Counted from the stretch's first letter, positions 18,626-56,889 are shown. The stretch: DNA of 64,000 nucleotides from Myxococcota bacterium (GCA_036012755.1 DASCPX010000027.1:96001-160000), one strand, 5' to 3'. Numbers and translations are program-made. The notes: generated by a model not told the origin, from the sequence alone.

Positions 18626-19378
18626 ATGCTGCTCATCTGGTCCACCCTCGCGTCCGCGTCGGACTTCTCTGCGGCCGAGACGCTGCCTCACTACCTGCTC
18701 GTCCAGGACGTGGACGAGGCGCCACCCGCGGGAGACCCGAGCGCGGGGCAGCCCGAACGCGCCCGGGACTACCTCATGGAGGTCAACCTGCGCGGGCGGT
18801 ACATGGTCGTCCCCGACTCCATCCTGGACATCTGGTACTTCAACGGCTCGGACGACAACGGCGCCCACCTGGAGCGCCCCTCGATCCGTGCCTACGCGAC
18901 AGGGCTCGAGTTCTGCGTCCGGAACGACACGCAGATGGGTGCGTTCTACTTCGACTACTGGGGGAACCTCATCGAAGGAGGCTACTGGGACGACGTCGAG
19001 GATCCCGAGGACTACCTGGATGGCGACTGGATGGAGCCGTCGGAGAACTTCGGCGTCGTGAACTTCGGCATCAACTACTACTACGACATGCGCCTCGCGA
19101 AGTGGTTCTCGATCGTGGTCGGGGCCGGTCTCGGTGGTGCCTACGTCATCGGTGACCTGGAGCAGTGGGACTCAAAGGGCGGCGAGGCGGCCTACAAGGT
19201 CCACCAGGACGACCCAGACGCCCCTCCGGACGACGTCTACCGCATCCCCAGCGTGGTCCCGGTCGTGGACATCAACGCCGGCGTCAAGTTCCACATCAAC
19301 GACCGCGCGAGCATCCGGCTCGAGGGTGGACTGCACAACCTGCTCTACGGCGGCGGAGCGCTCGGCATCGTGTTCTGA
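18626..19378 (+). CDS. Putative outer-membrane beta-barrel protein
   Basis: Short signal peptide, amphipathic strands (VVDINAGVKFHI, IRLEGG), C-terminal Phe. Confidence 0.6.
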   Translation: MLLIWSTLASASDFSAAETLPHYLLVQDVDEAPPAGDPSAGQPERARDYLMEVNLRGRYMVVPDSILDIWYFNGSDDNGAHLERPSIRAYATGLEFCVRNDTQMGAFYFDYWGNLIEGGYWDDVEDPEDYLDGDWMEPSENFGVVNFGINYYYDMRLAKWFSIVVGAGLGGAYVIGDLEQWDSKGGEAAYKVHQDDPDAPPDDVYRIPSVVPVVDINAGVKFHINDRASIRLEGGLHNLLYGGGALGIVF

Positions 19379-19447
19379 GGGCTTGCGGTCCCCAGGAGGC
19401 TGCATTAAGCGCGGGTGGTCTGAACCCCTACTGTCGGAGCCAGCGCG

Positions 19448-19654
19448 TTGGTCAGCGTCACCGTCCGTGAAAACGAGCCCTTCGAGAAGGCCCTACGCCG
19501 CTTCCGCCGAAAGGTCGAGCGCGAGGGCATCCGCAAGGACATCAAGAAGAACAAGGTCTACCTCAAGCCTGGGGAGCGCCGGCGGCTCAAGCAGCGGCTG
19601 GCGGAGAAGCGTCGCCGCAAGGCCGCTCGCCGCGCCCAGAAGCGTCGCAGGTAG
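19448..19654 (+). CDS. rpsU: 30S ribosomal protein S21
   Basis: VRENEPFEKALRRFRRKVE...YLKP; TTG start with GGAG SD. Confidence 0.95.
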   Translation: MVSVTVRENEPFEKALRRFRRKVEREGIRKDIKKNKVYLKPGERRRLKQRLAEKRRRKAARRAQKRRR

Positions 19655-19657
19655 CGC

Positions 19658-20470
19658 CTACCACCGAGCAGCCCAGACGCTGCTCGTGTCTTCATAGAGC
19701 TTGGCCGCCCTCTCACGGGCGGCTTTGTTCTCCAGCGCCCAGGGCCCGTCCGCCCCCGCTGGGTAGCTCTCGTCGAAGTTCCGAAGCTCGCGCTCGAAGA
19801 CGGAGCGCTCCCCCTCGAGCACGAGCTGGTGCCGGGCGAAGTCCAGGTGCGCCACCGCAAGCCGCGGCTCGGACTCGACGGCGTTCTGGAACAGGGCTCG
19901 GGAGCGGGGCAGCTCGCGATCGAGGGGCCCCTCGACCAGCACCATCGACATCGCCTCGCCCCATGGACCCACCCATCCCTCGCTCAAGAGTCGGGACTGG
20001 CGCGCCATCAAGCGGATCACCTCCAGGTCGATCGCAGCCGCCGGACCACGCAGCTCGACCCAACGGATCCAGGCGACGAGGGTGGCGTCGAGGCACCCAT
20101 GATCCTCTTCCGTGAGCTGGCGGATCGCGCCCCCCGTGACGCGGCCGCTCCCAAACTCCACGCGGCTCTGGAAGCCCGGGTTGAGCTCGAGGCACTGGAG
20201 GCCATAGGCCCGTGCGCGCTCGTATTCGGCCGCCCGCTGGTCCGTGACATGCCCCCATGCACGCGCCGCCCAGGCCTCGGCGAGGGCCTCGAGGATGCGC
20301 GGTTCACCGGGATGCTCAGCGAGGAGACCGCGGTACATCTCGATGGCCAGATCGAGTCTCGCCAGGTCCTCGCGTTCGGCGTAGACCGCGTCCGCGCGCC
20401 CCAGTCCGGTCTCGACAGGGTCGCGAACCTCGCCTCCGCGAAGCCAGCAGGAAAGCAGGAGGACGAACAC
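19658..20470 (-). CDS. TPR-like lipoprotein (TatT-like)
   Basis: MFVLLLSC; helical repeats; YERARAYGLQCL and ENKAARERAAKL resemble TatT-family proteins. Confidence 0.55.
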   Translation of the reverse strand: MFVLLLSCWLRGGEVRDPVETGLGRADAVYAEREDLARLDLAIEMYRGLLAEHPGEPRILEALAEAWAARAWGHVTDQRAAEYERARAYGLQCLELNPGFQSRVEFGSGRVTGGAIRQLTEEDHGCLDATLVAWIRWVELRGPAAAIDLEVIRLMARQSRLLSEGWVGPWGEAMSMVLVEGPLDRELPRSRALFQNAVESEPRLAVAHLDFARHQLVLEGERSVFERELRNFDESYPAGADGPWALENKAARERAAKLYEDTSSVWAARW

Positions 20471-20524
20471 ATGGTGAGTCTAGCGCGCCTTCCCTGCCGG
20501 CGCCTTGTGTCAGGCTCGGGGTCC

Positions 20525-20609: not shown

Positions 20610-20620
20610 CCCCCACCGCG

Positions 20621-29288: not shown

Positions 29289-30665
29289 TCAGGGTCTCGG
29301 CTCCCTCCGGACAGGCGCCGCGCGGACAGCGGCCTCCATGACCTCGCGGACATTCTGCGGCTGGACCTCGGGCTCCAGCGGGGTGGTGCCGGGCACGTAC
29401 TCGGCCCACTTCTCGAACATGAAGCTGTTGGTCGCCACGGTGTAGGTCCTGGTCTCGAGCGGGGCGCCCCCGACCGACAGCGGCGAGAGCGTCATGCCGG
29501 CGTACTGGACATCATCTCCGGCGAGGGAGGCCAAGGTCTCGATGTCCTCTGCCGACAGCCCGAAGGTCACGACCGTGTTGTCGAAGGGGAAGACCGAGAA
29601 CACGTCGCGGCGCGTGAGCTCGCCAGCGAAGAAGGGGGCCCGAAGGCCGCCGGAGTTGTAGACGGCGATGTCGACCTCCGCGGCCTCGCGGAGGCGAGCG
29701 CATGCCCACAGTCCCACGTCGGAGAGCACGTCCCGCCCCTCTTGCAGATCCTCTTCAGCCACGCCGATCACGACCCCCCACTCGGCGGCCACCTCGGCGA
29801 GCAGCTCCGCGTGCAGGGCGTCCACCTTCGCCGGCACCTCGGTGGGCTCCTCTACCAGATCGACGAGCTCGTAGTCGAAGTCTGTGATCCGGTCGTCGGC
29901 CACGTGAAGCCGAACCGTGCCGAGCGAGCGGGCGTAGCTCCCTGCCTGGACAATGCGGGTGTCACCGACCTCCAGCGCTTCCCGCAGCGCAGTGTGCGAG
30001 TGCCCGCCGACGATGAGGTCGATGCCGTCGACGGCAGCCGCGAGCTCCTTGTCCGGCTCGACGCCGATGTGGCTGATGACGATGATCAGGTCGGTGTCCG
30101 GGTCCAAGCGCTCGACCTCGGGCCGGACCGCTGCCGCGATGTCCCCTCCCCGGCTCTCGCCGAGCTGTGTGGGCGCGACGACGCTGTCGAGGCGGTCCGT
30201 GACGACTCCGATGAGCCCGATGCGGAGCGCACCCCTGGTCACGACGAGGGACGGCAGGGCGCCCTGGAGCCTGGGCTCGGCGTTGGCGTTGAGGGCAGCA
30301 ACGGCGCTGTGGGCGATGAGGGCCTCTGTGTTGGCCACGCCGTGATCGAACTCGTGGTTCCCGACCGCCCAGGCGTCGTAGCCCACAGCCTCTAGCACCT
30401 CGACCATTGCCCCACCGATAGCCCCACCTCGCTTCGTCTGTGCGTAGGGGGTACCGGAGAGCAGATCGCCGGCGTCCAGGACGAGCACGTCCCCTTCGCG
30501 TCGGTGCCGGGCCACTCGCGCGCCGATGGCACGCATGCCTCCGATCGCCGGGTCCCCTTCGAGCCAGGTCGCCTTCTCGGGCTCGATGTGGCCGTGCATG
30601 TCGTTGGTGTGGAGGACAACGAGCTCGCCGCTGGGCGGCGGGGTGCACGCGACCAGCGCGATCAC
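29289..30665 (-). CDS. Bifunctional metallophosphatase/5'-nucleotidase lipoprotein
   Basis: HTNDMHG, LDAGD, GNHEFD, GGHSH, NSGGLR, FPFDN. Confidence 0.92.
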   Translation of the reverse strand: MIALVACTPPPSGELVVLHTNDMHGHIEPEKATWLEGDPAIGGMRAIGARVARHRREGDVLVLDAGDLLSGTPYAQTKRGGAIGGAMVEVLEAVGYDAWAVGNHEFDHGVANTEALIAHSAVAALNANAEPRLQGALPSLVVTRGALRIGLIGVVTDRLDSVVAPTQLGESRGGDIAAAVRPEVERLDPDTDLIIVISHIGVEPDKELAAAVDGIDLIVGGHSHTALREALEVGDTRIVQAGSYARSLGTVRLHVADDRITDFDYELVDLVEEPTEVPAKVDALHAELLAEVAAEWGVVIGVAEEDLQEGRDVLSDVGLWACARLREAAEVDIAVYNSGGLRAPFFAGELTRRDVFSVFPFDNTVVTFGLSAEDIETLASLAGDDVQYAGMTLSPLSVGGAPLETRTYTVATNSFMFEKWAEYVPGTTPLEPEVQPQNVREVMEAAVRAAPVRREPRP

Positions 30666-30818: not shown

Positions 30819-31394
30819 TCACTGCGGCTTCGCCTGGCCCCAGACCCTCCAGCCCTCCGCGTCGTACCGGAGGACGAGGGGGCTGACCGGGTGGTCGAGC
30901 TGCTCGAACATCTTGCGCGCACCGACAGCAACCACCTTGTCGACCTCGCTGTCTCCGGGCGTCCAGGCCACGAGCGCTCCACGGGCGGGGACCGCCACGA
31001 GCACCTCCTCGCCGAGCTGGCCGAGCCACTCCGGATGGAGCAACACGGTGCCCTCGCGACCTGGCTCGGCGGTGGACTGCCAGTAGTGCCCGCCTCCGGG
31101 GATCTCGACCCTGGTCAGCGGGCTCTCTTCGAGCGCCCCGGCAGCGTGACGCCTGAGACCGGCGCGCGTGACCCCCCAGGCTTCCAGATCGGCCTCTGTG
31201 ACGTAGCGCCGGGTCTGGTCGCTCTCGACCCGGAAGCAGAGCAGGACCGCCTCGACGAGGGCGTCGCAGACCAACTCCTTTTCCTTGCCGTCGCCGCTTG
31301 CCTGCTCCCGAAAGAGCGCCGGCGCGTCAGCCCCTTCCGGGCTCGCGAGGATCACACCTGGCGGTTCCGCCAGGGCCAGTGAGATCCACCACAT
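30819..31394 (-). CDS. DUF1444-like exported protein
   Basis: YVTEADLEAWGVT, VLVAVPARGAL, HPVSP pattern. Confidence 0.6.
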   Translation of the reverse strand: MWWISLALAEPPGVILASPEGADAPALFREQASGDGKEKELVCDALVEAVLLCFRVESDQTRRYVTEADLEAWGVTRAGLRRHAAGALEESPLTRVEIPGGGHYWQSTAEPGREGTVLLHPEWLGQLGEEVLVAVPARGALVAWTPGDSEVDKVVAVGARKMFEQLDHPVSPLVLRYDAEGWRVWGQAKPQ

Positions 31395-33948: not shown

Positions 33949-34608
33949 ATGCTCGCTCTCGGCCTCCTGTCATGCGCGGTGAATCACGGCGTTCGACCCA
34001 TCGGAAAGGGCAACGTCGCGGCGACGGGCAGCCTGGGCGGCCCCGTCATCGAGGCCTTCGGCGCTCCCATGCCGCTGCCCCTGACCACCCTCGGTGTGCG
34101 CTACGGCATCAGCGACAACAGCGACCTGCACGCGAGCGTGCATCCCTCTCTCGCTGGCATGTTCGGGCTCATCGGCGTCGACGCCGGCGCGAGCTACCTC
34201 GTCGCACCTCAGCTGGGTCCTCGCCCTGCCGTCCTGGTCGACGGAACCCTGCTGGTCGTCGGTGGCGACACGGTCGAGGGTGAGCCCGATGGCGGCGTCC
34301 GCGCCTACGTCTCCGCAGCGACCCTGGCGAGCTGGACCTGGGGGAAGCGGGACAACCTGGTCTACGGCGGCGGCGAGCTCTTCCTCCAGCCTCGGCCGTG
34401 GCAGCTCTATGCCGCGCCGGTGGTCGGCAACCGCTTCCAGCTCACCCGCCGCCTCGGCCTCGCCCTGGAGCTCCGCTGGGTCGACCCCTGGGTCCAGACC
34501 GACGACCTCACGGTGCACTTCTACTCCCCGCGTCGCTATGGCGCCGTGAGCGTCCACGCCGGCTTCCACGTCGCCTTCGGGCCGGACTTCGCGAAGGAGC
34601 CAGGATGA
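33949..34608 (+). CDS. Hypothetical lipoprotein (beta-rich)
   Basis: MLALGLLSC lipobox-like start; beta-strand pattern. Confidence 0.65.
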   Translation: MLALGLLSCAVNHGVRPIGKGNVAATGSLGGPVIEAFGAPMPLPLTTLGVRYGISDNSDLHASVHPSLAGMFGLIGVDAGASYLVAPQLGPRPAVLVDGTLLVVGGDTVEGEPDGGVRAYVSAATLASWTWGKRDNLVYGGGELFLQPRPWQLYAAPVVGNRFQLTRRLGLALELRWVDPWVQTDDLTVHFYSPRRYGAVSVHAGFHVAFGPDFAKEPG

Positions 34609-35417
34609 TCCTGCTCGTCACCGGCTGCATGACGCTCGACCCCTTCTTCTTCAACGGCGAGGTCCTCACCCAGTACGGCTTCCCGACAGAGGTCATCCCA
34701 GAGGACCGCGTCGAGGAGGTGGTGTTCGACAGCGGCGAGGAGACGCTCTACGGCATGTGGGCCTGGCAGTACCAGCCCCGCAAGCACCCCACGCTGGTGT
34801 ACTTCCACGGCAACGCCTCCCACATGGACGAGTACATGCCGCGGGTCGAGGTGCTCTGGAACTTCGGCTACAACGTCTTTCAGTTCGACTATCGGGGCTA
34901 TGGACGCTCGACTGGCTCCTCCAGCCACGACTCGGCCATCGAGGACGGCCACGCCGCGGTCGACCAGGCACTGCTCGACGCCCCGTGGCTTCGAGAGGGC
35001 AGCAACCAGCTGGCCTATGTGGGGCTGTCGCTGGGCGGTTTCGTCAGCCTCCACACCGCGCTGGACACCCCGCCCTACGCGCTGGTCACCCAGGACATGT
35101 TCGCGAGCGCAAGCGACCTCGTCGAGCTGAACTTCGGCCTGGACAGCCCGGATGGCTGGCTCTTCGAAGGCGCCTTCGACAACGCCGGAGCCGCCTCGCA
35201 GCTGGAGGTGCCCTACCTCGTCCTGCATGGGGCGGACGACTCCTACATCAAGCCCGACAACGCCGAGCGGGTCTACGCAGCCGCGAACGAGCCCAAGCGC
35301 CTCTTCCTGGTTCCCGGGGCCGACCACGCCGAGATGGCCACGGAGCAGACGGCCGTCTACGAGCAGGAGCTCGTCGGGTGGCTCGAGACCTGGGCGCCGG
35401 TGGACCCGGAGGAGTAG
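34605..35417 (+). CDS. Alpha/beta hydrolase lipoprotein (ABHD13/BEM46-like)
   Basis: YFHGNA, DYRGYGRS, GLSLGG, LHGADD, GADH; ATGA coupling. Confidence 0.88.
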   Translation: MILLVTGCMTLDPFFFNGEVLTQYGFPTEVIPEDRVEEVVFDSGEETLYGMWAWQYQPRKHPTLVYFHGNASHMDEYMPRVEVLWNFGYNVFQFDYRGYGRSTGSSSHDSAIEDGHAAVDQALLDAPWLREGSNQLAYVGLSLGGFVSLHTALDTPPYALVTQDMFASASDLVELNFGLDSPDGWLFEGAFDNAGAASQLEVPYLVLHGADDSYIKPDNAERVYAAANEPKRLFLVPGADHAEMATEQTAVYEQELVGWLETWAPVDPEE

Positions 35418-37797: not shown

Positions 37798-38346
37798 CTA
37801 CCAGGGCGGCCAGCCCCGCGCCTCGCCGCCGGTGAAGGCGATGCCGTCGAGGTCGGTCTCGCCCTCGATGTTGGCGAAGAGGTTGGTGTGGCCGTCCGAG
37901 AAGCCCAGGACCGTCACGGTGACGTCCGGGTCGTTCTCGCTGCTGTAGATGACCGGCGTGCCCTGGGTGGGAGTCAGCGAGTAGCTCATAGAGCTCACCG
38001 GGTAGGTCCCTGCGTAGCGCAGGTCCCCGTCGACGATGATCGTGATGACCTCGGCCTGGCTGTTGTCCGGGATGTTCGCGCTCAGCGAGGTCTTGGTCCA
38101 GAAGCCCTCGTCGGTGGACCACGCGGAGCCGTCCAGCGTCGCCACGAAGCTCGGGGGTTCCGGGTCGAACTCGTCTCCGTAGCTGGTGTCCTCTGTGTCG
38201 CCCTCGGAGTCGTCAGTGCCCTCGGAGTCGTCGGTGACGGGGCTGTCGTCTTCCGCCGAGTCCGCGGTCTGCTCCTTGTTCCCGCTGCAGGCGAGTGACA
38301 GCGCCAGGACGGTCCCACCACAGACGCTCAGTCGAATCGCACGCAT
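37798..38346 (-). CDS. Hypothetical lipoprotein
   Basis: MRAIRL...LSLAC signal, acidic linker, beta-rich domain. Confidence 0.7.
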   Translation of the reverse strand: MRAIRLSVCGGTVLALSLACSGNKEQTADSAEDDSPVTDDSEGTDDSEGDTEDTSYGDEFDPEPPSFVATLDGSAWSTDEGFWTKTSLSANIPDNSQAEVITIIVDGDLRYAGTYPVSSMSYSLTPTQGTPVIYSSENDPDVTVTVLGFSDGHTNLFANIEGETDLDGIAFTGGEARGWPPW

Positions 38347-40116: not shown

Positions 40117-41714
40117 TGCTGGTCCTCGTGGGGGCCGCGCTCGCCCAGGACCATCCCGCGGGCGAGCGCATCGACGAGGCCATCGCGGCGGTGGCAGGTG
40201 AGCAGGCCTTCGACCAGCTGGGCGGGCTCGTCAGCACCCTCGCTCCAGAGGCCATGGAGCTCGATCCCACCGGCGACGAGCAGGGCAGCGGCTGCTTCAA
40301 CTACGCGTACCTGATCGAGAACATGAAGGTCTACGTCGAGATCCTCGACACCCGGATCACGCCCGGAAGCGGCGTCCTGGATGTCGAGGTGGACGCAGAG
40401 ATCGCGGTGAACGACGCCTCTGATCCCTTCGACCTCACCATCGAGCTGTTCTGCAACGAGACCTACTGCCCCACCTACATCGACCCCTTCGAGGCGACGC
40501 TGATCACCGACATCGCGCTGACGCTGGTCGAGGACGCCGACGGCAACAAGGTGATGGACGCCACGGTCTCGCCCTTCACGCTCGACAACAAGCTCGCCAG
40601 CGAGGACATCCACCTCGACTGCAGCATCGCCACCGTCGAGACGGTGCTGAACATCTTCGGGCTGTCGCTCTACGAGCTCATCATCGGGATGCTGGAGTCC
40701 CAGCTCTCCGACCAGCTCGAGGACACGCGGGCCGACATGGAGCTGCAGATCGAGGAGGCCTTCGCGGACCTTCGGATCGAGGAGACCGTCGCCCTCGGTG
40801 ATGCCGAGCTCCTGATCCTGCTCGAGCCAGAGGACGTCCGCATCACCGAGACCGAGCTCACCCTGGTGCTGGCTGGCTCCGCAGAGGCCACCAGCGTCGC
40901 CGAGTGCATAGAAGACGACGACCCCGGCGCCAGCGTCGGCACCGTGGGCTCCGTGCCTGGCTCCGAGTCCCTGGACGGGCGCCACGCCGCCATCCTCGTG
41001 AGCGACGACTTCGGCAACCAGGCGGCCTACGCTGCCTGGCGCGGGGGCATGCTCTGCCAGAGCGTCTCCGATGGCGCCGGGCTGACCCTGGACACGTCGA
41101 TCCTCGCCGCGCTGACCGGTGGTGTCTACGAGCCGCTCTTCGACGAGCCCAAGCCGATGGTCCTGGCGATCCGGCCCCACGTGCCGCCCACGCTGGCCAC
41201 CACCGAGCCCAGCCCGGCCGTGGACCTCGAGCGCTTCGGCATGGACATGGTCGCGGAGGTAGACGACCGGATGGCCCGGGTGGTTGCGGTCGAGCTCGAC
41301 GCCCTGGTCGAGATCCCGATGAGCTTCGACGAGAACACCGGAGAGCTCGCCATCGACGTCGGAATCGACGAGGAGACCCTCGAGGTCGCCGTCGTCCACA
41401 ACGAGCTCGTCACGGGCACGGATGACGAGGTCGCCCTAGCCTTCGTCGATGGCATCGGGCCTTTCCTGGACCTCGCCATCGGCGCGCTCGCGGGCTCCCT
41501 GTCCTTCGACATGCCTGCCTTCGAGGGCATCGGCGTCACGGCCTTGGAGGCCGGCTTCTTCGACGACTGGCTCGTGATCGGCGTGGACCTGGGCGAGCCG
41601 CTGTATGAGCCCGCCTCTTGCGAGGACGGCTGCTCCGGCGGCTGTGGCGTGGGCGGAGGCCTCTCAGGGCTCCTGGCGATGTTGGCCGTCGGCCTCGTGC
41701 GCCGGCGCGAGTGA
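40116..41714 (+). CDS. Secreted acidic protein, BPI/LBP-like, with MYXO-CTERM-like tail (paralog 2)
   Basis: Collinear similarity to paralog 1 (CFNY, GLSLY, AWRGG, VVHNELVTGTD); TGATG coupling. Confidence 0.75.
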   Translation: MLVLVGAALAQDHPAGERIDEAIAAVAGEQAFDQLGGLVSTLAPEAMELDPTGDEQGSGCFNYAYLIENMKVYVEILDTRITPGSGVLDVEVDAEIAVNDASDPFDLTIELFCNETYCPTYIDPFEATLITDIALTLVEDADGNKVMDATVSPFTLDNKLASEDIHLDCSIATVETVLNIFGLSLYELIIGMLESQLSDQLEDTRADMELQIEEAFADLRIEETVALGDAELLILLEPEDVRITETELTLVLAGSAEATSVAECIEDDDPGASVGTVGSVPGSESLDGRHAAILVSDDFGNQAAYAAWRGGMLCQSVSDGAGLTLDTSILAALTGGVYEPLFDEPKPMVLAIRPHVPPTLATTEPSPAVDLERFGMDMVAEVDDRMARVVAVELDALVEIPMSFDENTGELAIDVGIDEETLEVAVVHNELVTGTDDEVALAFVDGIGPFLDLAIGALAGSLSFDMPAFEGIGVTALEAGFFDDWLVIGVDLGEPLYEPASCEDGCSGGCGVGGGLSGLLAMLAVGLVRRRE

Positions 41715-42305
41715 ATCCGCGAGTGACTCCACAAAGGCGCGACCTTCCTCGGTCGTGGAGAGGCTCCGCCAGACCGCCAGCTTCTCCTCTTCGTTCATGG
41801 TGTCCCAGGTCTCCGCCGCGAGGGCCATGAGCTCGCCACGGAGTTGCTCCAGCACCGCCTCGCGCCCCCCCTCCCCCCAGGGCAGACCATGGGCTTCGAG
41901 GCCCCGCACGTCCGCCTGCGGGTATTGGACGTCCAGGATCACGAGCCCCGAGAGCTTGCAGTGGTTGCGGCCCGACAGCTCGATCAGCCAGTGGCCCTCT
42001 CGGCCCTCCAGGCGGAGCTTGCGGAAGCCGCCGACATCTCCGGCTGGGGGAAGCGACAGCGGGTCTCCGATGCAGGCGCCGAGAGGCTTGGCGAGGGCCC
42101 ATCTCTTCTTGACCGCGATGGGGGGGTCCAGCAGGAGCTCCCGACCCACCGGATCGTAGAGGACCTGGTCGCCGTCCTCGGCCTGGAAGACCTCCACGGG
42201 ATCACCGCCGATGTGGCGATAGACCCGCGCCACTGGCTCCTCATCTCGGGCCTGCTGGGCGGCCTCCTCGACGGGCGCCGCGCACGCCAACAGGAGCAGA
42301 CTCAC
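41664..42305 (-). CDS. Hypothetical lipoprotein
   Basis: MSLLLLAC start; coding-like composition. Confidence 0.55.
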   Translation of the reverse strand: MSLLLLACAAPVEEAAQQARDEEPVARVYRHIGGDPVEVFQAEDGDQVLYDPVGRELLLDPPIAVKKRWALAKPLGACIGDPLSLPPAGDVGGFRKLRLEGREGHWLIELSGRNHCKLSGLVILDVQYPQADVRGLEAHGLPWGEGGREAVLEQLRGELMALAAETWDTMNEEEKLAVWRSLSTTEEGRAFVESLADSLAPAHEADGQHRQEP

Positions 42306-42322: not shown

Positions 42323-42805
42323 TCAGTTGCGGACCAGGTTGTTGCAGTAGTCGGCGGAGAAGTACTCCGTGCTGTAGCTGCCGACGTCGTCACCGAAGGT
42401 GATGTCGAAGGAGCCCTCCATCAGGCCGTTGTCCTCCATGCTCTGGACCTGGAGGTTGCCGTCCCGACCGCGGTTCTCGACGAACGCGCCGCCCTTGACG
42501 GCCAGGGCCTTCGCGGCGACGGCGGCGTCACCGGCCACGTTGAAGTTGCCCTTCTGCGTCGCGTCCTCGTCGAAGCCGAACTGCAGCGCGACGAAGTCGA
42601 AGTCCGCGGGGGCCTCTGCCGCGTCGTAGGTGCGCCGCACGAAGCTCATGTCGTAGCAGGTGAGCTCCACATCCACGAAGATGACGAAGGGCCCCCCCCA
42701 GAGAGCGGTGAGCGGGTCGGAGACGGCGTACCCGTCGACCGTGCCGTCGATGACCGTAGCGTCAGGGCCGCAGCCGAGCATGGTGAGCGCGCTGAGCAGG
42801 AACAT
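42323..42805 (-). CDS. Hypothetical lipoprotein
   Basis: MFLLSALTMLGC after an AGGAGA SD; beta-rich. Confidence 0.65.
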   Translation of the reverse strand: MFLLSALTMLGCGPDATVIDGTVDGYAVSDPLTALWGGPFVIFVDVELTCYDMSFVRRTYDAAEAPADFDFVALQFGFDEDATQKGNFNVAGDAAVAAKALAVKGGAFVENRGRDGNLQVQSMEDNGLMEGSFDITFGDDVGSYSTEYFSADYCNNLVRN

Positions 42806-46347: not shown

Positions 46348-47358
46348 ATGGCCGAGAAGGACAGCTTCGACCGCTTCGTAGCCGACGAAGCAGAGAACAC
46401 CCAGTACGAGTCCCACTACCTCAAGGCGAACTCGCCCGATGGCGAGCGGGCGTTCTGGGTGAAGCACACCCTCGTCTGCGCGGGCCCGACATGGGCCGAG
46501 CGGATCTGGGAGGTCTGGTTCCTCGCCTTCGAGCGCGGTGGACGGACCTGGGTGAACAAGGCCGAGCTCCGCTGGGGACAGATGGAGGCCATCCTCGACG
46601 GCCCCTGTCTCGTCGGACCCGGCGTCCGCTTCGACCCGACCCGCTCGGTCGGCAAGCTCGGCAGCATCGAGTGGGAGCTCATCCTCGGCGGCGGTGTCGG
46701 CCCGATCCGTCACCTGCCCATCGAGGCGCTCTACCGCGGCAGGAACACCAAGGTCCTCACCCCTGCGAGCTGCCTGCGCTTCGCCGGTGAGGTCCGGCTC
46801 GGTGACGAGACCTGGCCGATCGACTCCTGGGTCGGATGCCGGGGCCACAACTGGGGCGAGGACTACGGACAGCGCTACGGTTGGGTCGCGACGCACGTCT
46901 GGGACGACGGCGCCCAGCGCTCGGTAGAGGGCTTCACGGGCCTCGCCAGCGCCCCGCTGGTCGGGCAGACCCTGGTGTCCCGCGTCATCGCGAAGGGCGC
47001 CGATACGGCCTCGTGGACTCGTCCGGGTACGTGGCCAGCGGCTCCAGGCGCCCACGCCGTCCGTTTCCAGAGCTCCGGCGGCGGCTCGCTGTCGGCAGAA
47101 GCCGCGGCGGGTGAGTTCGTCCACCTGCGCTATCGGAGCCCCAGCGGGGCCGACGTGCTGTGTCGCTGCACGAAGTTCGCGAGCGTGCGCTTCGAGGGCC
47201 CCTCGGGGGTGTCTACCTCTCGCTGCGGCGAGCTGGAGTTCGTCGATCGCGCTCTCGCCGTCCCCGAGGATGCACTGCCGCCCGCCGACTGGAAGATGTC
47301 GGAGGACGGCGTCTTCGAGAGGGTCTTCTATGGATCGACCGCCAGGTCGGCCTCGTAG
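46348..47358 (+). CDS. Hypothetical protein (tocopherol cyclase/AttH-like beta fold)
   Basis: YESHYLKAN, AFWVK, GHNWG motifs. Confidence 0.6.
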   Translation: MAEKDSFDRFVADEAENTQYESHYLKANSPDGERAFWVKHTLVCAGPTWAERIWEVWFLAFERGGRTWVNKAELRWGQMEAILDGPCLVGPGVRFDPTRSVGKLGSIEWELILGGGVGPIRHLPIEALYRGRNTKVLTPASCLRFAGEVRLGDETWPIDSWVGCRGHNWGEDYGQRYGWVATHVWDDGAQRSVEGFTGLASAPLVGQTLVSRVIAKGADTASWTRPGTWPAAPGAHAVRFQSSGGGSLSAEAAAGEFVHLRYRSPSGADVLCRCTKFASVRFEGPSGVSTSRCGELEFVDRALAVPEDALPPADWKMSEDGVFERVFYGSTARSAS

Positions 47359-48764
47359 GAGATCACGCCGACGTCGCCTGCCAGGTCGTGGGCTCCGGTG
47401 AGGTAGGCATCGACGCTGCCGTCGCCCTTGACCGTGCCCTCGAAGGCGTCGCTGTAGGCGTCGACGACGACCTTGCCGATGACGTTGGTGCCGCTCTCCT
47501 CGGCGGACCAGGTGATCTGGAAGTCTCCGCTGCGGCCCTCGTGCTCGAGGTGGCAGACCGCCGTGAGGTAGAGGTGTCCCTTGTTCGCGACACCGTTGAC
47601 CGGTCCCGAGCAGGTCTTGGTCACGCCGTAGCGGTCAGAGGTGACGTCCGCCTCGAACCAACCGCTCTTGTCGCCATCCGCGATGGCGCCGATCGGGATC
47701 GAGCCGCCCCCGCCGCTTCCGTTGACGAGGTCGATGTAGCGATCCCAATCCCAGCCCGATCCGGGGTCCGTGTGGCAGCTCGTGCCACCACCGCCGGGGT
47801 TCGAGCAGCCCGGCACCTCGTAGTGGCCGATGATGTGGCTGCGGTCGATCGGGATTCCGTAGCGGTCGCAGATGTCGCGGGTCAGCCGCGCCGAGGCCGA
47901 GTAGAGCGCCTCCGTGTACCACTTGTCGGGCTCCGCGACGTAGCCCTCGTGCTCGATCCCGATCGAGGACTGGTTCGTGTCCCAGTGGCCGGCGTGCCAG
48001 GCGATGTCCTCTTCGTCGACCGTCTGCGTGATCTCGCCGTCAGATGACCTGACGACGTAGTGGGCGCTGGCCGAGGCCGAGGAGTTCTGGAACCAGCTGA
48101 TCGCCCCGGAGTAGCTCCCCTGGACGGTGTGGATGACGACCATGTCGACGCTGGTGCGGCTGCCGTTGGTGTAGTTCGACGAGGACGCTGGAACGAACTG
48201 AGCGATCAGCGATGAACCCGCCATCTCCTGGCGGCTGGACAAGAACGGGAAGGAGCGAGCGGCCACGGTGATGACCTCGTCGCCCTCCTCGATGACGAGC
48301 CCCCAGCTCAGGAACATGTAGACCTGAGCCGCGAAGCCCTCGGCCAGCAGCGGGTCCCGCTCACCGGAGAAGGCCGCGACGATCGGGTACCAGTCTTCGT
48401 GGGTGACGACCTCTGCCCCCCAAGCATCCTCGCGGCTGTCGGCCATCGAGGCCATCAGGGCCGCGGCGCCGCGGATGTTCTCGCAGGTGTCGAGCTCGAG
48501 CTCCTCGCTGGACACCTGGATCAGCGCGGCGGCCTTGTGGATCGACGGCGTGCTCCCGTCGACGCGGAGGTCCATGACGCCGACGCCGCCCTCTGTGCTG
48601 ATCTCCCCCGACCTGGAATCGACGCGGGTCAGGGCGTAGGAGGTGGCGATGAGGAGGTCTCGAGGGACGTCGAACTCAGCGGAGGCGTCGTCGAAGGCGA
48701 CATTCAGCGAGTGGGTGTCTGCAGACTCGGGGGTCGCGCAGGCGACCAGTGCAGCCAGGATCAT
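47328..48764 (-). CDS. N-acetylmuramoyl-L-alanine amidase (Amidase_2) lipoprotein
   Basis: VVIHT, SAHY, AWHAG, SIGIEHEG, IIGH, HTDPG; GAGGAG SD. Confidence 0.93.
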   Translation of the reverse strand: MILAALVACATPESADTHSLNVAFDDASAEFDVPRDLLIATSYALTRVDSRSGEISTEGGVGVMDLRVDGSTPSIHKAAALIQVSSEELELDTCENIRGAAALMASMADSREDAWGAEVVTHEDWYPIVAAFSGERDPLLAEGFAAQVYMFLSWGLVIEEGDEVITVAARSFPFLSSRQEMAGSSLIAQFVPASSSNYTNGSRTSVDMVVIHTVQGSYSGAISWFQNSSASASAHYVVRSSDGEITQTVDEEDIAWHAGHWDTNQSSIGIEHEGYVAEPDKWYTEALYSASARLTRDICDRYGIPIDRSHIIGHYEVPGCSNPGGGGTSCHTDPGSGWDWDRYIDLVNGSGGGGSIPIGAIADGDKSGWFEADVTSDRYGVTKTCSGPVNGVANKGHLYLTAVCHLEHEGRSGDFQITWSAEESGTNVIGKVVVDAYSDAFEGTVKGDGSVDAYLTGAHDLAGDVGVISYEADLAVDP

Positions 48765-52019: not shown

Positions 52020-53417
52020 TCAGAGGCTGTAGAGGACCCACTCCTCGCCGACGGCGACGGGGGCGCCGACCGTCGCAGCGAGCCAGCCCTCGATGGCTGC
52101 CGCGTTGCGTAGTTCTGGCCGGTGGAGGAGGAGCCACGAGGTCCCCTGGTCCTCGAGGCGCTCGTCTCGGGCGAGCCAGAGGGTCTCGGCGGCCCGGGTG
52201 TCGACGGTCTGGCCGTCCATCGCCGAGAGGTAGCGGATCCACGCCGGGTTCGGGCTGTGTTGGCCGACGATGAAGTCGATCTCCGCCGGCGCGGTGGAGC
52301 CCTGGAACCACGGGGCGCCGGGGGTGGGCCACACGAGGACCTCGCCAACGGACTCGGGCAGCGCCGCGATGGCCGGATCGGGCGGCAGGACTGTGATGGG
52401 AGCCCGGAGCGACCCTCCGAGGAGGGCCTCCGCGAGCACCGCCAGCCCAGCCGCGGCGAGGAGTACCCGGTGCTTCGCCGCGACCGCGAGCACGCCGAGG
52501 AGCCCCGCGAGGCAGATCGCCGCGGCCCACCCGCTCCCACCCCGACCGAAGCCAGGCGGGGCCAGCGCGAACCACCAGTCGGCAGGTCTGGGCGGTGGTA
52601 GCCCCGACGCTGGGAGCCAGCCCGTGCCGAGCACCACGACGACGGCCAGGATCAGGCCGACGACTCCCGCGGCGCGAGGTCCGAGGGTGACGCAGGCCAG
52701 CAGACCGACGAGGGCGAGCCAGCCCCCGTGGGGTCGCGGCGTCGGGTCCGTCGGAGGTGCCAGCATCGCTGGCATCGGAATCACCGAGCCCTCGGGCGTG
52801 ACGTAGGCCGGCACGGTGCGCCGCTCCGGCTCGGCCTGTCGGAGGGTGTGGGCATCCGGCGACGAGCCCACCGCCAGCTGGGCGAACAAGACGGGCACGA
52901 CCGCCAGCCAGGTCCAGCGGCACCGCCAGCGCCCCGCCAGGACCACCAGCCCGAGCGGCCAGCAGAAGGCCGCGGCGAGCCCGGCGAACAGGGGTGCCGC
53001 GACGACGCCGGCAAGCGCCAACGCCGCAGGCCCCAGGCCCCAGGTTGCGACCTCGCCCGCCCACTGAGCGCGGAGCAGGGCGGGACACAGCTGGAGGCCG
53101 AGCATCCCGAGCGCGCCGATGGCGACACCGTGCTTTCGGCCCAAGAGGTAGCCCCCGAATCCCGCGCACCACACGCCGATGAGCGCCAACGACCCCATCG
53201 CCGTCAGGTCGTCGACCACCAGCCCGAGGAGCCACTGGAGGCCAGCGGCTGCGGGACTGACCGCGTCGAGCGGGTCTCGCGGCCCCAACAGGGAAGCGAA
53301 GAGGATCTCCCCCCGCAGTCCGGGCACCTTGAAGCCCCCGAGGGCGGGCCCGAGGGAGACAGCAGGCAGCACCGCGGCAGCCAGCGCGGCGAGTGCGGTC
53401 TTGGCGCGTTCGTTCAC
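52020..53417 (-). CDS. Polytopic membrane hypothetical protein
   Basis: Multiple hydrophobic segments; GTGA coupling with the upstream gene. Confidence 0.55.
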   Translation of the reverse strand: MNERAKTALAALAAAVLPAVSLGPALGGFKVPGLRGEILFASLLGPRDPLDAVSPAAAGLQWLLGLVVDDLTAMGSLALIGVWCAGFGGYLLGRKHGVAIGALGMLGLQLCPALLRAQWAGEVATWGLGPAALALAGVVAAPLFAGLAAAFCWPLGLVVLAGRWRCRWTWLAVVPVLFAQLAVGSSPDAHTLRQAEPERRTVPAYVTPEGSVIPMPAMLAPPTDPTPRPHGGWLALVGLLACVTLGPRAAGVVGLILAVVVVLGTGWLPASGLPPPRPADWWFALAPPGFGRGGSGWAAAICLAGLLGVLAVAAKHRVLLAAAGLAVLAEALLGGSLRAPITVLPPDPAIAALPESVGEVLVWPTPGAPWFQGSTAPAEIDFIVGQHSPNPAWIRYLSAMDGQTVDTRAAETLWLARDERLEDQGTSWLLLHRPELRNAAAIEGWLAATVGAPVAVGEEWVLYSL

Positions 53418-55186
53418 TCCACCGGATTATCGGCCGCGCAGACCTCCGAGCCGCAGAAGTGCTCGACGACGCCCGGGTCCTCTGGGTCGAGGAAGCGCAG
53501 CATCTGCAGCTTCGCCGACTCCCACTTCCGGACCTCGCGGTGGGCGCCGGTGCGGTCGCTGGGCTGGTTGCCGTTGGTGGGATCAGCCAGCTGAGGATCG
53601 AACTGCACGAGCACCGGCCCGGCTTGCGGCTCCGCGCCCTCGAGCCCCTCTGGCAGGAGCGCATAGGGCTCGAGCAGGGGCCACCCGGCGGAGCGCGCCA
53701 GCATCTCGGTGCCGAGATTGCTGACCTCGTCGTCGCCTACTGCCTCCTGCAACAGGAGCGATCGTCCGGAGAGCTCCTCGCTCCAGCTGAGCGGATCGAC
53801 CGGGTCCCAGTACATCTGGGTCATCGCGTAGCTCAGCTGCCGGTCGGTGCTGTCCTCGACGCCGATGGAGACGAGATCCTCGAAGTCCGACCAGTTCGTG
53901 GAGCGCGGGAAGGTCATCGACCAGTTCGCGCCGCCGACGTGCAGCAGCCCGTGTTCCAGCTCCGGGATCGTAGCGAGGGCGACGCCCCCCATGATCGCCC
54001 CGGCGGAGACCCCCAGGTAGTAGAGCTCTGTTGGGTCCGCGAGCCCGAGGAGCTCCGGGTCGTCCATCAGACCCCCGTTCTGGACGAGATCGACCAGGGC
54101 CTTGTGGTTGACGACGCCCTGGTGGAGACGCTCGCTGATCTCGGGGAAGGTGCCGAGATCGTTCGCCGCGCCGACGACGTCGGGGAGATCGCTGCGGGTC
54201 AGCCCACGCCACGTCGTCGCGACCACGATCATCTCGAGGCGGTCCGACCACTCGAGGAAGTGGTCCGGGTCGTCCGGGTCCGCGAAGATGTTCTTGCAGT
54301 TGTTGAAGAGCCCGTGGCCCCAGATCACGACCGGCACGCTGCCCGGCTCTGCCTCGCTGACAGAGTCGGGGATGTGGATGTACAGGTCGGCCTCGGTGGT
54401 CCCGGTCCTCTGGGGGATTCCGTCCGCGTCGAGATCCAGGAGCGAGTCGTCGACGAGGAAGTCGTCAACCGTGAAGGTCCCCTGCAGGCGCTTGTAGAGG
54501 GGGTCCGCGAGCTCCTCGTCGTCCTGGATCTTGAGCCAGGTCCACTCGGTCGTCGTTCCGAGCTGCTCGAGCATCGCCGTCAGCGGCTCCTTGGCGTGGT
54601 CGACCGGGAAGTCCCAGGCCACCGCGACATCGGACCGCGGGACGCCGAGGGCGTCGAGCTCGTCCATCAAATCTCTCGTGCGCGGGCCGATCTCCGGGCA
54701 GCCGATGGGGTCGGCGCCATCCAGCACGGCCTGGAAGACCTCTGGCCGCGGCGCCACTTCGGTCGTCACCACGACGGCGATCCGGTGGCCGTCCTCCATC
54801 AGCTCCAGCGGACGCACCATGAGCAGGCGCCCGTCGCTGCCGCCACCGTCGTCGACCTCTGCAAAGCTGAGGACGCGTCGGCCGGTCTCGAGGTCGATCA
54901 TCTGGACGTTGCCGCTGCGCTGAGGGGCAGAGGGCGTAGGCAGCGCGGACTCGTCGATCCGATCGAGCCGGACCAGCGCGGTCTGGAGGGGAGAGAAACC
55001 CGTTCGGTGGTCGAGGCGCTCGACGGGCGTCGGCGTCGTGACCATCGGAAGGAGGCCCTCTGGGATGCGGACCCTCCCCTCCTCCATCACCTGCGCCGAC
55101 GGATAGGGCCAGAGCGCGCCGTGGCCCAACAGTCCGCCGTCTCCGGTAGGGAGCGGGTCCGTGCAGGCCAGCGCTAGAAGCCACAT
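53414..55186 (-). CDS. Lipoprotein alpha/beta hydrolase (lipase-like)
   Basis: MWLLALAC, TGFSP, VIWGHGL, YLGVSAG elbow, GDDEV, H. Confidence 0.75.
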   Translation of the reverse strand: MWLLALACTDPLPTGDGGLLGHGALWPYPSAQVMEEGRVRIPEGLLPMVTTPTPVERLDHRTGFSPLQTALVRLDRIDESALPTPSAPQRSGNVQMIDLETGRRVLSFAEVDDGGGSDGRLLMVRPLELMEDGHRIAVVVTTEVAPRPEVFQAVLDGADPIGCPEIGPRTRDLMDELDALGVPRSDVAVAWDFPVDHAKEPLTAMLEQLGTTTEWTWLKIQDDEELADPLYKRLQGTFTVDDFLVDDSLLDLDADGIPQRTGTTEADLYIHIPDSVSEAEPGSVPVVIWGHGLFNNCKNIFADPDDPDHFLEWSDRLEMIVVATTWRGLTRSDLPDVVGAANDLGTFPEISERLHQGVVNHKALVDLVQNGGLMDDPELLGLADPTELYYLGVSAGAIMGGVALATIPELEHGLLHVGGANWSMTFPRSTNWSDFEDLVSIGVEDSTDRQLSYAMTQMYWDPVDPLSWSEELSGRSLLLQEAVGDDEVSNLGTEMLARSAGWPLLEPYALLPEGLEGAEPQAGPVLVQFDPQLADPTNGNQPSDRTGAHREVRKWESAKLQMLRFLDPEDPGVVEHFCGSEVCAADNPVE

Positions 55187-55190
55187 CCGC

Positions 55191-55742
55191 TCACTCCGTG
55201 GCGGCCATGCGCCTCTCGAACTCGGCAACAAGGATAGCCCCGCCTCCCCAGCGCTGCAGCCCGCTGGCAACCCCGCCGACGAAGCCGCCCCCGAAGTCAT
55301 CACCCGGACCCCGCGGCTCTCCCCGGGCGAAGCGTTCGATCGGGGGACTCCTCTTCAGGATCTCGTCCATTGCCGCCCGGACCTCTGCGGACCGGTCGGG
55401 CAGCCAGCCTCGCTCCAGCGCGACGCGGAACATCGTCGCGCGCAGCAGCGCTTCGACCGTCTCGTCCAGGACGTCCTTGACGGTCAGGAAGTAGAAGATC
55501 GTGCGGAAGATCTTCCGGACCACCCAGAAGATCACCCCTCCGGCGACCCGACCGAGGAGCCCACCACGCAGCCGCGTGAGCAGGACGAGCGTGTCGCGGT
55601 CGATCGAGACTCCGGCATCCCTGGCGATCTGCCGGTACATCTGGCGACGCAGGCGTGACCCGATCCAGCGGTCCACGAGCGGAACTGGCACCAGCGGCGT
55701 CAGGCCCGCCAGCAGTCCCCAGTGCACGACAGGGAGTCTCAT
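55191..55742 (-). CDS. Hypothetical protein
   Basis: LTPLVPVPLVD motif; fills the gap between neighbours. Confidence 0.6.
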   Translation of the reverse strand: MRLPVVHWGLLAGLTPLVPVPLVDRWIGSRLRRQMYRQIARDAGVSIDRDTLVLLTRLRGGLLGRVAGGVIFWVVRKIFRTIFYFLTVKDVLDETVEALLRATMFRVALERGWLPDRSAEVRAAMDEILKRSPPIERFARGEPRGPGDDFGGGFVGGVASGLQRWGGGAILVAEFERRMAATE

Positions 55743-55781
55743 CTGGCCTCTGTGGGGTTCGTCGTGTAACTACGGCGAACG

Positions 55782-56519
55782 ATGCTGCCCGCTTTCATCG
55801 CCGAGGCTGCCGAGATCATCGAGGGGCCCGCGCCTCTGCTCTTCACGTGCGAGCACGCCAGCCCTCGCGTGCCCTCTCCGCTGGAGCCCTCTGCTGACGA
55901 CAGTGCAATCCTCGAGACCCACTGGGGCTGGGACATCGGCGCCAGCGCGCTGACCCGCGCCCTGGTCGGGCGGCTCGGTGCCAGCGCGGTGCTCTCTCGC
56001 TTCTCGCGGCTGGTCTGCGACGCCAACCGAGCCCTCGACGACCCCACCTGGATCATGGGTCAGGTCGAGGGCCACCGGATTGCATTCAACCGGCGGGTGG
56101 ACCCCGCCGAGCGCCTCAGGCGGCTCCAGACCTACCACGCGCCCTACCACTCCGCTGTCGACGCCGCCCTTGGTGTCATGGGGCCTCAGACCGTCCTGAT
56201 CGCCATCCACAGCTTCACTCCGGTCTACATCCAGGAGGTGCGGGAGATGAAGGTCGGCGTGCTCTACGACGACTGCGAGGACGCGGCGTTCGCAGTCCGA
56301 GACGCCATCGCATCAGAGATCCCGGAGACCACGCTCAACGCGCCCTACTCAGGGCTCGACGGTGCGATGTACAGCGCCACGCGTCACGGCCGGGGTCACG
56401 ACCTGACCTACCTCGAGCTGGAGCTCCGGCAGGACCTGCTCGCGACGCCGGATGGAATCCAGCTCACTGCGGATCGGCTGGCCTCGGCTCTTCGTCAGGC
56501 GGGGTTGGCGCGCCCGTGA
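55782..56519 (+). CDS. N-formylglutamate amidohydrolase
   Basis: TCEHAS, HWGWDIGA, SRLVCDANR, PYH, IHSFTP, NAPY, ELRQDL. Confidence 0.9.
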   Translation: MLPAFIAEAAEIIEGPAPLLFTCEHASPRVPSPLEPSADDSAILETHWGWDIGASALTRALVGRLGASAVLSRFSRLVCDANRALDDPTWIMGQVEGHRIAFNRRVDPAERLRRLQTYHAPYHSAVDAALGVMGPQTVLIAIHSFTPVYIQEVREMKVGVLYDDCEDAAFAVRDAIASEIPETTLNAPYSGLDGAMYSATRHGRGHDLTYLELELRQDLLATPDGIQLTADRLASALRQAGLARP

Positions 56520-56889
56520 AGGGCCACACTGGGACCTCTGTACCGTCCGGGTGCAGGGACCACTGACAGACGCCGTCGACACATCCGCAGCTCTTCAGCG
56601 CGTGGAAGCAGAGGCGGATCTCGCAGGTGGTCATCACCTCTGCGATCGTCGCGGCCGGTGCGCAGACCTCTCGGCTGCAGCCGCCGCGGAGGCAGTCACT
56701 GTCGACGGCGCACTCGCCGGCAGTCTCCATCCACTCCACGCGCTCGCGGCAGTCCTGGTAGAGCTCGTAGCCGTCTTCGATGATCAGCTCGGTCATCGGC
56801 TGGAGGCCCTCCTCGCCGAAGGGGGAGGCTTTCTCCAGGGGGACGACAGGAGGCTCGGGGGCCTCGCACCAGCAGGCGAACAACATCAT
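56464..56889 (-). CDS. Eight-cysteine-cluster domain protein
   Basis: CAVDSDCLRGGCSREVC...TTCEIRLC...CGCVDGVCQW. Confidence 0.7.
   Translation of the reverse strand: MMLFACWCEAPEPPVVPLEKASPFGEEGLQPMTELIIEDGYELYQDCRERVEWMETAGECAVDSDCLRGGCSREVCAPAATIAEVMTTCEIRLCFHALKSCGCVDGVCQWSLHPDGTEVPVWPFTGAPTPPDEEPRPADPQ

Follow-up and report, generated by a model that had tools for sequence, protein, structure and literature searches.

The window considered here is a stretch of 64,000 nucleotides (G000:C27:96001-160000) from the genome of an uncultured marine member of the Myxococcota, a metagenome-derived assembly of 6.73 Mb in 250 contigs with a GC content of 68%. The window contains no Ns. Between positions 18,626 and 56,889 lie thirteen genes whose predicted products begin with very short hydrophobic leaders that end in a lipobox cysteine or in small residues of the kind recognized by signal peptidase I (SPase I), with no basic n-region ahead of the hydrophobic stretch (Table 1). 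These leaders had been noted in a preliminary description of the sequence, and all 13 of the N-terminal peptides that it cited were confirmed in position and strand. The genes at 26093, 38346, and 57033 have ordinary signals, as had been described, indicating that both forms coexist in the genome. The preliminary description also named several normally exported types of protein among the products. Protein families were assigned by Pfam and NCBIfam searches, which bear out the 5'-nucleotidase and the amidase, whereas the labels "beta-barrel" and "CTERM" correspond to no family match. Eight of the candidates, including the two paralogues labeled "CTERM", lack a significant match in either collection; one of these eight, the protein at 55186, has a match that falls far under the cut-off. 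Judged from their sequences, hundreds of proteins in this bacterium and its closest relatives are predicted to start in this way, with Met and 5–10 hydrophobic residues that include no positive charge, about half the length of a textbook signal, and it is likely that the leaders are genuine, working, minimal Sec-type export signals.

Table 1. Short-leader candidates and comparison genes in the window (aa, amino acids; nt, nucleotides; SD, Shine-Dalgarno)
Coordinates (strand)	Length	Leader	Leader type	Product or family	Start context and other observations
18626..19378 (+)	250 aa	MLLIWSTLASA	SPase I-like, no Lys/Arg		GGAG 11 nt upstream; exact protein public; G004 orthologue leader likewise uncharged
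19658..20470 (-)	270 aa	MFVLLLSC	Lipobox Cys 8	TAtT-like TPR protein (Pfam TAtT)	GTG start; in-frame TAG 4 codons upstream, part of TAGACT at -12 (leaderless-type -10 box)
29289..30665 (-)	458 aa	MIALVAC	Lipobox Cys 7	5'-Nucleotidase/metallophosphatase (Pfam 5_nucleotid_C, Metallophos)	
30819..31394 (-)	191 aa	MWWISLALA	SPase I-like		In-frame TAG 6 codons upstream; exact protein public; G004 orthologue leader longer, uncharged
33949..34608 (+)	219 aa	MLALGLLSC	Lipobox Cys 9		In-frame TAG 4 codons upstream, within TAGTAT at -12; exact protein public
34605..35417 (+)	270 aa	MILLVTGC	Lipobox Cys 8	Alpha/beta hydrolase (Pfam Hydrolase_4)	ATGA overlap with upstream stop; AAGGAG upstream; earlier in-frame GTG at 34398; exact protein public
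38461..40116 (+)	551 aa	MLLLCALSTSAQA	SPase I-like		GTG start; GAGGAG upstream; G004 orthologue leader also short, uncharged
40116..41714 (+)	532 aa	MLVLVGAALA	SPase I-like	Paralogue of 38461 gene	Start overlaps upstream stop (TGATG); earlier in-frame ATG at 40020; exact protein public
41664..42305 (-)	213 aa	MSLLLLAC	Lipobox Cys 8		GTG start; stop of upstream gene ~20 nt upstream
42323..42805 (-)	160 aa	MFLLSALTMLGC	Lipobox Cys 12		GAGGAG before ATG; alternative ATG 6 codons upstream would add MRGDFS; exact 160-aa protein public
47328..48764 (-)	478 aa	MILAALVAC	Lipobox Cys 9	N-Acetylmuramoyl-L-alanine amidase domain (Pfam Amidase_2)	GAGGAG upstream; exact protein public
53414..55186 (-)	590 aa	MWLLALAC	Lipobox Cys 8		GGAG upstream; earlier in-frame GTG at 55303; exact protein public
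56464..56889 (-)	141 aa	MMLFAC	Lipobox Cys 6	Eight-cysteine domain	Start ambiguous: in-frame GTG two codons upstream has better SD spacing, leader still uncharged; public versions of 141, 143, 152, and 153 residues
23124..26093 (-)		MKLPRTF...	Comparison gene, ordinary signal	M16 peptidase	
37798..38346 (-)		MRAIRLSV...LAC	Comparison gene, ordinary lipoprotein signal		
57033..57743 (+)		MSRTRTAQ...LGC	Comparison gene, ordinary lipoprotein signal	Multihaem cytochrome	

The start codons of the candidate genes have been scrutinized within the window. For eight of them (18626, 20470, 30665, 31394, 33949, 38461, 42305, and 48764) the proposed codon is the first ATG, GTG, or TTG after an in-frame stop, in agreement with the earlier claim. 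The other five sites have earlier in-frame starts and had been said to be supported by stop-start overlaps or SD motifs; this support is present at 34605, 40116, 42805, and 55186 and is equivocal at 56889, where the choice of start is ambiguous. All ten of the ATG-start window proteins that were looked up (nine candidates and one ordinary-signal gene) exist letter-for-letter in public collections, indicating that other gene callers picked the same starts. Additionally, contigs from runs X4 and X5, which stem from two studies, are identical to the window across the starts at 30665, 31394, 33949, 34605, and 38461.

The extent of the phenomenon in the genome was probed using an in-house gene finder, a simple codon-usage model trained on the long open reading frames (ORFs) of the genome, which returned 4,459 ORFs covering 79% of the sequence. 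Each ORF was read from its first canonical start (ATG, GTG, or TTG) and hence with the longest possible N-terminus. The lipobox search required three uncharged residues followed by the lipobox, and chance expectation was estimated by applying this pattern after 58,628 internal start codons as a control. A lipobox Cys was found at residue 7, 8, 9, 10, and 11 in 68, 135, 77, 59, and 32 ORFs, respectively (371 of 4,393 in all), compared to 2.6, 2.9, 2.6, 1.5, and 2.0 expected from the control (about 12 in total), excluding chance as the source of the short lipobox leaders. Positions 15–25 each have a Cys in only 8–18 ORFs. The full set of ORFs that begin with Met and uncharged residues and have a lipobox Cys at residue 7–12 numbers 388 of 4,357.

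A measure that makes no use of the lipobox points in the same direction. When six-residue windows with a mean hydropathy of at least 2.4 are sorted by their starting residue, 586 of 4,357 ORFs have such a window beginning at residue 2 (119 expected) and 344 have one beginning at residues 3–5 (129 expected), with a small excess at residues 6–13 (450 versus 320). The 586 residue-2 windows consist of 308 with an early lipobox and 278 without. In the latter group, 121 (43.5%) contain an Ala-x-Ala site with the -1 Ala at residue 9–20, compared to 9.2% of 7,744 control windows. There are 216 ORFs with a Cys at residue 15–40 from the first start, 132 of which hold an internal start from which the leader would be short and uncharged; the remaining 84 cannot be short, and some of these are false positives of the pattern. 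Taken together, the residue-2, lipobox, and internal-start counts indicate that most leaders of the lipoprotein type and many of the SPase I type are short in this genome, amounting to roughly 500–700 genes. The proposal that short uncharged leaders are a property of the lineage, spread genome-wide over proteins of exported types and present alongside normal signals, is upheld. A foreign origin of the long-signal genes was considered and is not supported, as the per-codon score is 0.42 for these genes and 0.40 for the short set (Mann-Whitney p = 0.07), with p = 0.04 for GC content at third codon positions (GC3).

The short leaders have a consistent anatomy. The modal Cys position is residue 8, corresponding to five core residues plus Ala, and falls short of the usual core length; lipoprotein signals ordinarily have a hydrophobic core of about seven or more residues and a total length of about 15 or more. 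In the Cys-8 class (135 genes), residue 2 is Leu, Ile, or Phe in 111 and residues 3–6 are mostly Leu. Residue 7 (position -1), where the pattern requires Ala, Gly, or Ser, is Ala in 112, Ser in 13, and Gly in 10, and position -2, where the pattern allows ten uncharged residues, is Leu in 93 of the 135. The residues that follow the Cys are predominantly Pro, Asp, Glu, Ser, and Thr. Across all 388 leaders, the mean Kyte-Doolittle hydropathy is 2.7 and Trp occupies residue 3 in 36, compared to a frequency of 1.8% in the proteome. The 20 residues following the Cys have a net charge of -3.1, compared to -1.1 in background windows. As the Cys is at residue 7 or 8 in 203 genes, these leaders leave no room for an n-region. 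A set of large lipoprotein-type ORFs (among them C63:61252, C137:54206, C70:201045, and C53:46043) share the motif R-N/S/D-K-D/E directly after the lipobox Cys and are probably members of one paralogous family.

Features surrounding the start codons were compared across the same 388 genes. ATG serves as the start in 236 (61%), GTG in 140, and TTG in 12. An SD core is present at -15 to -7 in 165 of the 388, with a peak at -12 to -9, and in 1,133 of 3,753 other ORFs. An in-frame stop occurs three or fewer codons upstream in 115 genes. In the ten codons upstream of the start, the GC content at the first, second, and third codon positions is 0.69, 0.65, and 0.61, compared to 0.72, 0.49, and 0.88 downstream. 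For the 186 genes with no stop in the 12 upstream codons, upstream GC3 is 0.57 and the codon log-odds score is -0.49, compared to +0.30 downstream. The hexamer TANNNT is located exactly at -12 in 61 of the 388 genes, 25 of the 278 residue-2 genes without an early lipobox, and 203 of the 3,753 others, with 0–16 occurrences at neighboring offsets in the short set. This placement is the layout of a leaderless transcript, and in such genes nothing upstream would be translatable. SD and TANNNT are the only upstream signals detected; no conserved 5' leader or cassette emerged from a search for 8-mers present in at least 12 of the 388 upstream regions. By these sequence criteria, the short leaders are judged to lie at the true N-terminus of the precursor. 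Genome-wide, the 289 ORFs with TANNNT at -12 (61 + 25 + 203), with almost none at neighboring offsets, suggest leaderless transcription of at least about 7% of genes.

Orthologues were paired by BLASTP using 378 kb of DNA from G004, which belongs to a sister genus, 400 kb from G005, and 100 kb from G002, a member of the same genus. The G004 orthologues have longer leaders, often with Arg, and align with the short-leader proteins at the Cys or cleavage site and through the mature sequence. The nucleotidase at 30665, for instance, has a 7-residue leader here and an 18-residue leader in G004, with the Cys and the mature sequence in register. In another pair an 8-residue leader corresponds to one of 20 residues containing RR, and an M16 peptidase has a 13-residue leader of the SPase I type here and a 22-residue leader starting with MK in G004. 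The orthologues from G005 and G002 are also short (identities of 32–72% and a median identity of 69%). Within one clade, the pattern has persisted despite protein divergence of about 30–50%.

The cargo of the short leaders was examined using two sets of proteins chosen irrespective of their N-termini. Ten ORFs match the Plug domain of TonB-dependent receptors, and the six with a readable N-terminus comprise four that lack an n-region and two that are ordinary. MYXO-CTERM matches number 32 in this genome and 0 in 14 control genomes, in keeping with a member of the Myxococcota. Of these 32 ORFs, 11 lack an n-region, 3 have a short uncharged n-region, 3 lack an n-region when read from an internal start, 5 contain Lys or Arg, and 10 are unclear. 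At their C-termini, the tandem paralogues at 38461-40116 and 40116-41714 have a Cys/Gly-rich segment, then a hydrophobic helix, and last an Arg-rich tail (RRRED in the 551-residue protein), an arrangement resembling a C-terminal sorting tag; neither protein has a Pfam or NCBIfam match or is listed by the MYXO-CTERM model. BamD (G000:C149:39926-40537; L239-L268) has no lipobox Cys in most genomes of the order and possesses an SPase I-type leader instead, which lacks an n-region in some genomes and contains Arg in others. BamD was consequently dropped as a universal lipoprotein marker and serves only to illustrate leaders of the SPase I type.

The distribution of the trait among relatives was surveyed with a codon-degenerate pattern (Met or Val, five NTN codons, Ala or Ser, and Cys) that counts the 8-residue class only. 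The genome described here has 83 matches, two others of the same genus have 64 and 91, and three genomes of genus g4 have 113, 73, and 55. Lower counts are found in genus g2 (34), genus g6 (30), and the other genera of the family (2–17). Elsewhere in the order, family f7 has 14–48 matches and family f4 has 18 and 22. Outside the order, counts are 0–9 per genome (257 of 301 genomes searched), and the reversed pattern, used as a control, gives 0–3 per strand. In sampled DNA, the numbers of lipobox Cys at residues 7–12 versus 17–30 are 34 versus 12 in G005, 3 versus 15 in G004, 5 versus 2 in G030, 0 versus 4 in G026, and 0 versus 5 in G160. The six genomes with high counts form one clade in a SecY tree (support 100/99), adjoining G003 and the genus of G004, with f7 placed elsewhere. 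The trait peaks in this clade of two genera, is weaker elsewhere in the order, and does not rise above background in the remainder of the phylum. The SecY tree and the pattern counts together indicate that the extreme state arose at least once. Milder forms are present in several lines, and the background leaders are already short, often with a single Arg.

The export machinery has been considered as the source of the trait, as the existence of so minimal a signal had been taken to imply adapted SecA, signal recognition particle (SRP), Lgt, LspA, and LepB. This is not borne out, as the genome encodes ordinary forms of these components, and long-signal relatives possess genes of the same kinds with similar numbers of matches. 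The complement includes one copy each of SecA and SecY, together with Ffh, FtsY, and the SRP RNA, five matches to Lgt, two to LspA, and three to LepB; no extra machinery gene copies were seen in the high clade. Two lspA and two lgt-like matches occur in a row at G000:C59:100000-102585, outside the window, one of the lgt-like matches above and one below the family cut-off. Similar lspA-lgt clusters are found in G005, G004, and G026, and three further Lgt matches are located elsewhere in the genome. Within the window, a second, shorter SPase I homologue (88.5 bits) is encoded upstream of the candidate region at 13521-14012 on the minus strand (G000:C27:109521-110012).

SecY (G000:C80:13379-14725; L057:1288-2634) was aligned to E. 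coli SecY and 28 SecY sequences of the order were compared. The ring positions other than 187 (82, 86, 191, 278, and 408), the plug residue F67, and F286 match E. coli in this SecY and in almost all of the 28 sequences, with single departures at 82 in G030 and at 286 in G022 and G024. At the site corresponding to I187, all 28 SecYs of the order have Ala or Ser, and all nine of the other Myxococcota, which were read as 151-nt pieces around this site, have Ile or Met. Among 80 outgroup SecYs, mostly of other phyla, the same position is Ile in 54, Thr in 19, Val in 2, Ser in 2, Ala in 2, and Gln in 1, one of the two Ala cases being a same-genus relative. The Phe that neighbors this position (LIIFAG) is Thr in most of the order. 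According to the accessible text of PMC2171872, I187 and positions 191, 278, and 408 are members of the isoleucine ring and S282 is a prlA site. The position aligned with S282 is Ala in genera g1–g4. Substitutions specific to the high clade occur at 11 columns of SecY (including A93, G119, W153, F156, V216, G/A220, A280, and A370 in the protein's own numbering) and 8 of Ffh, and two of the SecY columns and one of the Ffh columns recur in f7. The recurring Ffh column is residue 364 in the protein's own numbering (G000:C27:286755-288056), which follows LPFF in the M domain and is Asp, Asn, or Glu in five high genomes, Asp in f7, and Ser or Gly in 18 low genomes. Since the high genomes form a single clade, such substitutions in SecY and Ffh may reflect descent alone.

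These observations suggest a mechanism by which the leaders could function. The signal would consist of the initiator Met, 4–9 strongly hydrophobic residues (mostly Leu, often with Trp at residue 3), and then Ala, Ser, or Gly followed by Cys, or Ala-x-Ala. Precursors would enter SecYEG and be cut at the conserved sites by LspA or LepB. The free or formylated N-terminus could take the place of the n-region, and the signal could be oriented by a charge asymmetry arising from the strongly acidic start of the mature protein (net -3.1 over its first 20 residues). The leaders may have originated through movement of start codons into the old hydrophobic region (h-region), in a phylum whose signals were already short and often contained a single Arg. 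Ordinary machinery may tolerate such leaders, or a relaxed step at SecY or SRP may be involved.

Several points weigh against the view that the leaders are working signals of this kind. In the accessible text of PMC9360617, Sec and lipoprotein signals are defined as combining a basic n-region with a hydrophobic core and either a lipobox or a -3/-1 site; of these elements, the short leaders lack the basic n-region. Some of the supporting counts are also of limited reach. The gene finder is crude and unvalidated, and it missed a few genes of the window. The lipobox pattern itself forces the six residues before the Cys to be uncharged, and the figure of 8 leaders with Lys or Arg among 388 is informative only for the 186 leaders with Cys at residues 9–12, all 8 being counted there. 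The DNA samples from relatives span 92–400 kb, and related genomes are not independent. A leader of 7–8 residues is, to our knowledge, shorter than any signal peptide known to work. The acidic flank after the Cys is found phylum-wide (-1.5 to -4.4 in 11 sampled genomes) and is consequently older than the short-leader trait, ruling out the acidic early mature region as a specific compensation. With regard to the machinery, five of six SecY pore-ring positions (82, 86, 191, 278, and 408) and the plug residue F67 keep the E. coli residue, the Ala or Ser at the I187 position, present in every genome with the trait, is also found in members of the order with long signals, and three Alphaproteobacteria that share it have 0–2 pattern matches. 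No machinery difference was found that tracks the trait.

Other explanations of the short leaders must be weighed with these points in mind. If the starts were miscalled and translation began upstream at non-canonical codons (CTG, ATT, or ATA), ordinary n-regions would be restored. The 186 genes with no in-frame stop in the 12 upstream codons would permit this, an in-frame ATA upstream of 18626 would add an Arg-rich stretch, and 42805 and 56889 have upstream canonical starts. However, the upstream codons of those same 186 genes look non-coding, the SD cores and TANNNT both peak relative to the called start, where ATG predominates, and stops close upstream leave little space in 115 genes. Upstream non-canonical starts had been named in the preliminary description as one of two findings that would undo its proposal, and they are largely refuted by GC3, codon log-odds, and near upstream stops, making this explanation very improbable. 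An artefact of assembly, binning, or sequencing might be suspected in a 250-contig metagenome assembly; it is hardly credible given that, at five of the starts, contigs of two separate studies are identical to the window, that the window has no Ns, and that the trait is found in at least eight other genomes of the clade. It is also conceivable that the signals have decayed or been re-purposed, such that the proteins are cytoplasmic or held in the inner membrane by an uncleaved N-terminus and are neither lipidated nor released. The leaders are indeed under the length thought to be necessary. Moreover, according to the accessible text of PMC13616975 (2026), the short type II beta-lactamase signals of Myxococcaceae are not processed as lipoproteins in E. 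coli. Decay would nevertheless be difficult to reconcile with the conservation of the lipobox and the Ala-x-Ala site at the right distance, with orthologues that have ordinary signals and align from the cleavage site onward, and with retention of the short state across two genera at about 30–70% protein identity. Furthermore, these leaders are found on outer-membrane receptors and on MYXO-CTERM proteins, both of which have to pass through the inner membrane. Loss of function is accordingly regarded as improbable.

A changed targeting step, either an obligatory co-translational SRP route, for which very hydrophobic N-termini are favored, or a looser, prl-like gating of SecY, is a more serious alternative, and one that is still considered unlikely. 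The Leu-rich, highly hydrophobic leaders and the complete SRP fit such a change, as do the acidic or amide residues at Ffh 364 in high genomes and f7, the Ala or Ser at the I187 position throughout the order, and the Ala at the S282 position in genera g1–g4, since prl mutations lessen the need for a signal (accessible text of PMC2585858). On the other hand, long signals persist in members of the order that share this SecY residue, the three Alphaproteobacteria do not show the pattern above 0–2 matches, the I187 position is itself variable (Thr in 19 of the 80 outgroup SecYs), and clade-specific substitutions are expected by descent in a single clade. The Ala or Ser in the pore ring is ruled out as a sufficient cause by the long-signal members of the order and the Alphaproteobacteria that share it. 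It is doubtful that the order-wide change of Ile to Ala or Ser in the isoleucine ring relaxed the demand of the channel on its signals. Similarly, the fuller scenario is only tentatively entertained, in which a naturally relaxed translocon throughout the order removed the need for the n-region and most of the h-region, with almost the entire exported proteome then collapsing to leaders of 7–12 uncharged residues in several lineages. Minimal signals that function in export thus provide the likeliest account of the leaders.

If the leaders work, the accepted minimum length of a bacterial signal peptide would be wrong by about half and a basic n-region would not be a universal requirement. Rules and prediction tools built around a basic n-region and a Cys no earlier than residue 15 would probably fail to detect the greater part of the envelope proteome, and with approximately 500–700 proteins overlooked in this genome, counts of its secretome and lipoproteins would be far too low. 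The leaders would also constitute a natural test set of very short export tags. Were the translocon of the order indeed relaxed, the prl suppressor state known from the laboratory would have an equivalent in nature that extends over a whole proteome, and the minimum for a functional signal of the Sec, lipoprotein, or SPase I kind would have to be redefined downward.

The short leaders can be compared to several known systems. Like canonical Sec/SPase II signals of the E. coli Lpp type (accessible text of PMC9360617; compare the rule of the PROSITE PS51257 style), they are N-terminal, with L-[A/S]-[G/A]-C coming after a hydrophobic core. They differ in having no basic n-region, 6–11 residues before the Cys as opposed to about 15–25, and a core of 4–8 residues. 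With canonical Sec/SPase I signals they share a core that gives way to small residues at -3 and -1, and the genome encodes LepB; in contrast to those signals, the core begins at residue 2, cleavage is predicted after residue 9–13, and the basic n-region is again missing. Tat signals contain a twin-arginine motif in the n-region, whereas Arg is absent from the short leaders. Directly next to the short-leader genes is a gene whose long leader is of the Tat type and includes a lipobox (MASMKRRDFF...; 57766-60816), and twin-arginine leaders have evidently not been shortened in this genome. At the level of transcription, many of the genes match the layout of leaderless mRNA genes, in which a -10 hexamer TANNNT ends about 6–7 nt before the start codon. 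Work from the Inouye and Mizushima laboratories is said to have shown that the basic n-region is dispensable in engineered signals with a very hydrophobic core. Those charge-less laboratory signals were single engineered precursors with full-length or lengthened cores, whereas the leaders of this genome have a shortened core and are the rule for most exported proteins. A literature search, with supplements outside its scope, found no account of proteome-wide, charge-free leaders of 7–12 residues, and the nearest statement is that of PMC13616975. In its accessible text, the type II metallo-beta-lactamase signals of Myxococcaceae are "considerably shorter" than that of NDM-1, and a membrane-buried cleavage site is discussed. 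Those signals come from the same phylum and concern one enzyme family in cultured Myxococcaceae, in contrast to the proteome-wide and charge-free leaders described here. Finally, prl alleles at pore positions make export less dependent on a signal (accessible texts of PMC2171872 and PMC2585858). The prlA (secY) suppressors of E. coli offer a parallel in that a channel-lining position of the isoleucine ring has a smaller residue throughout the order to which this bacterium belongs; here the change is natural and fixed and does not by itself appear to be linked to short signals.

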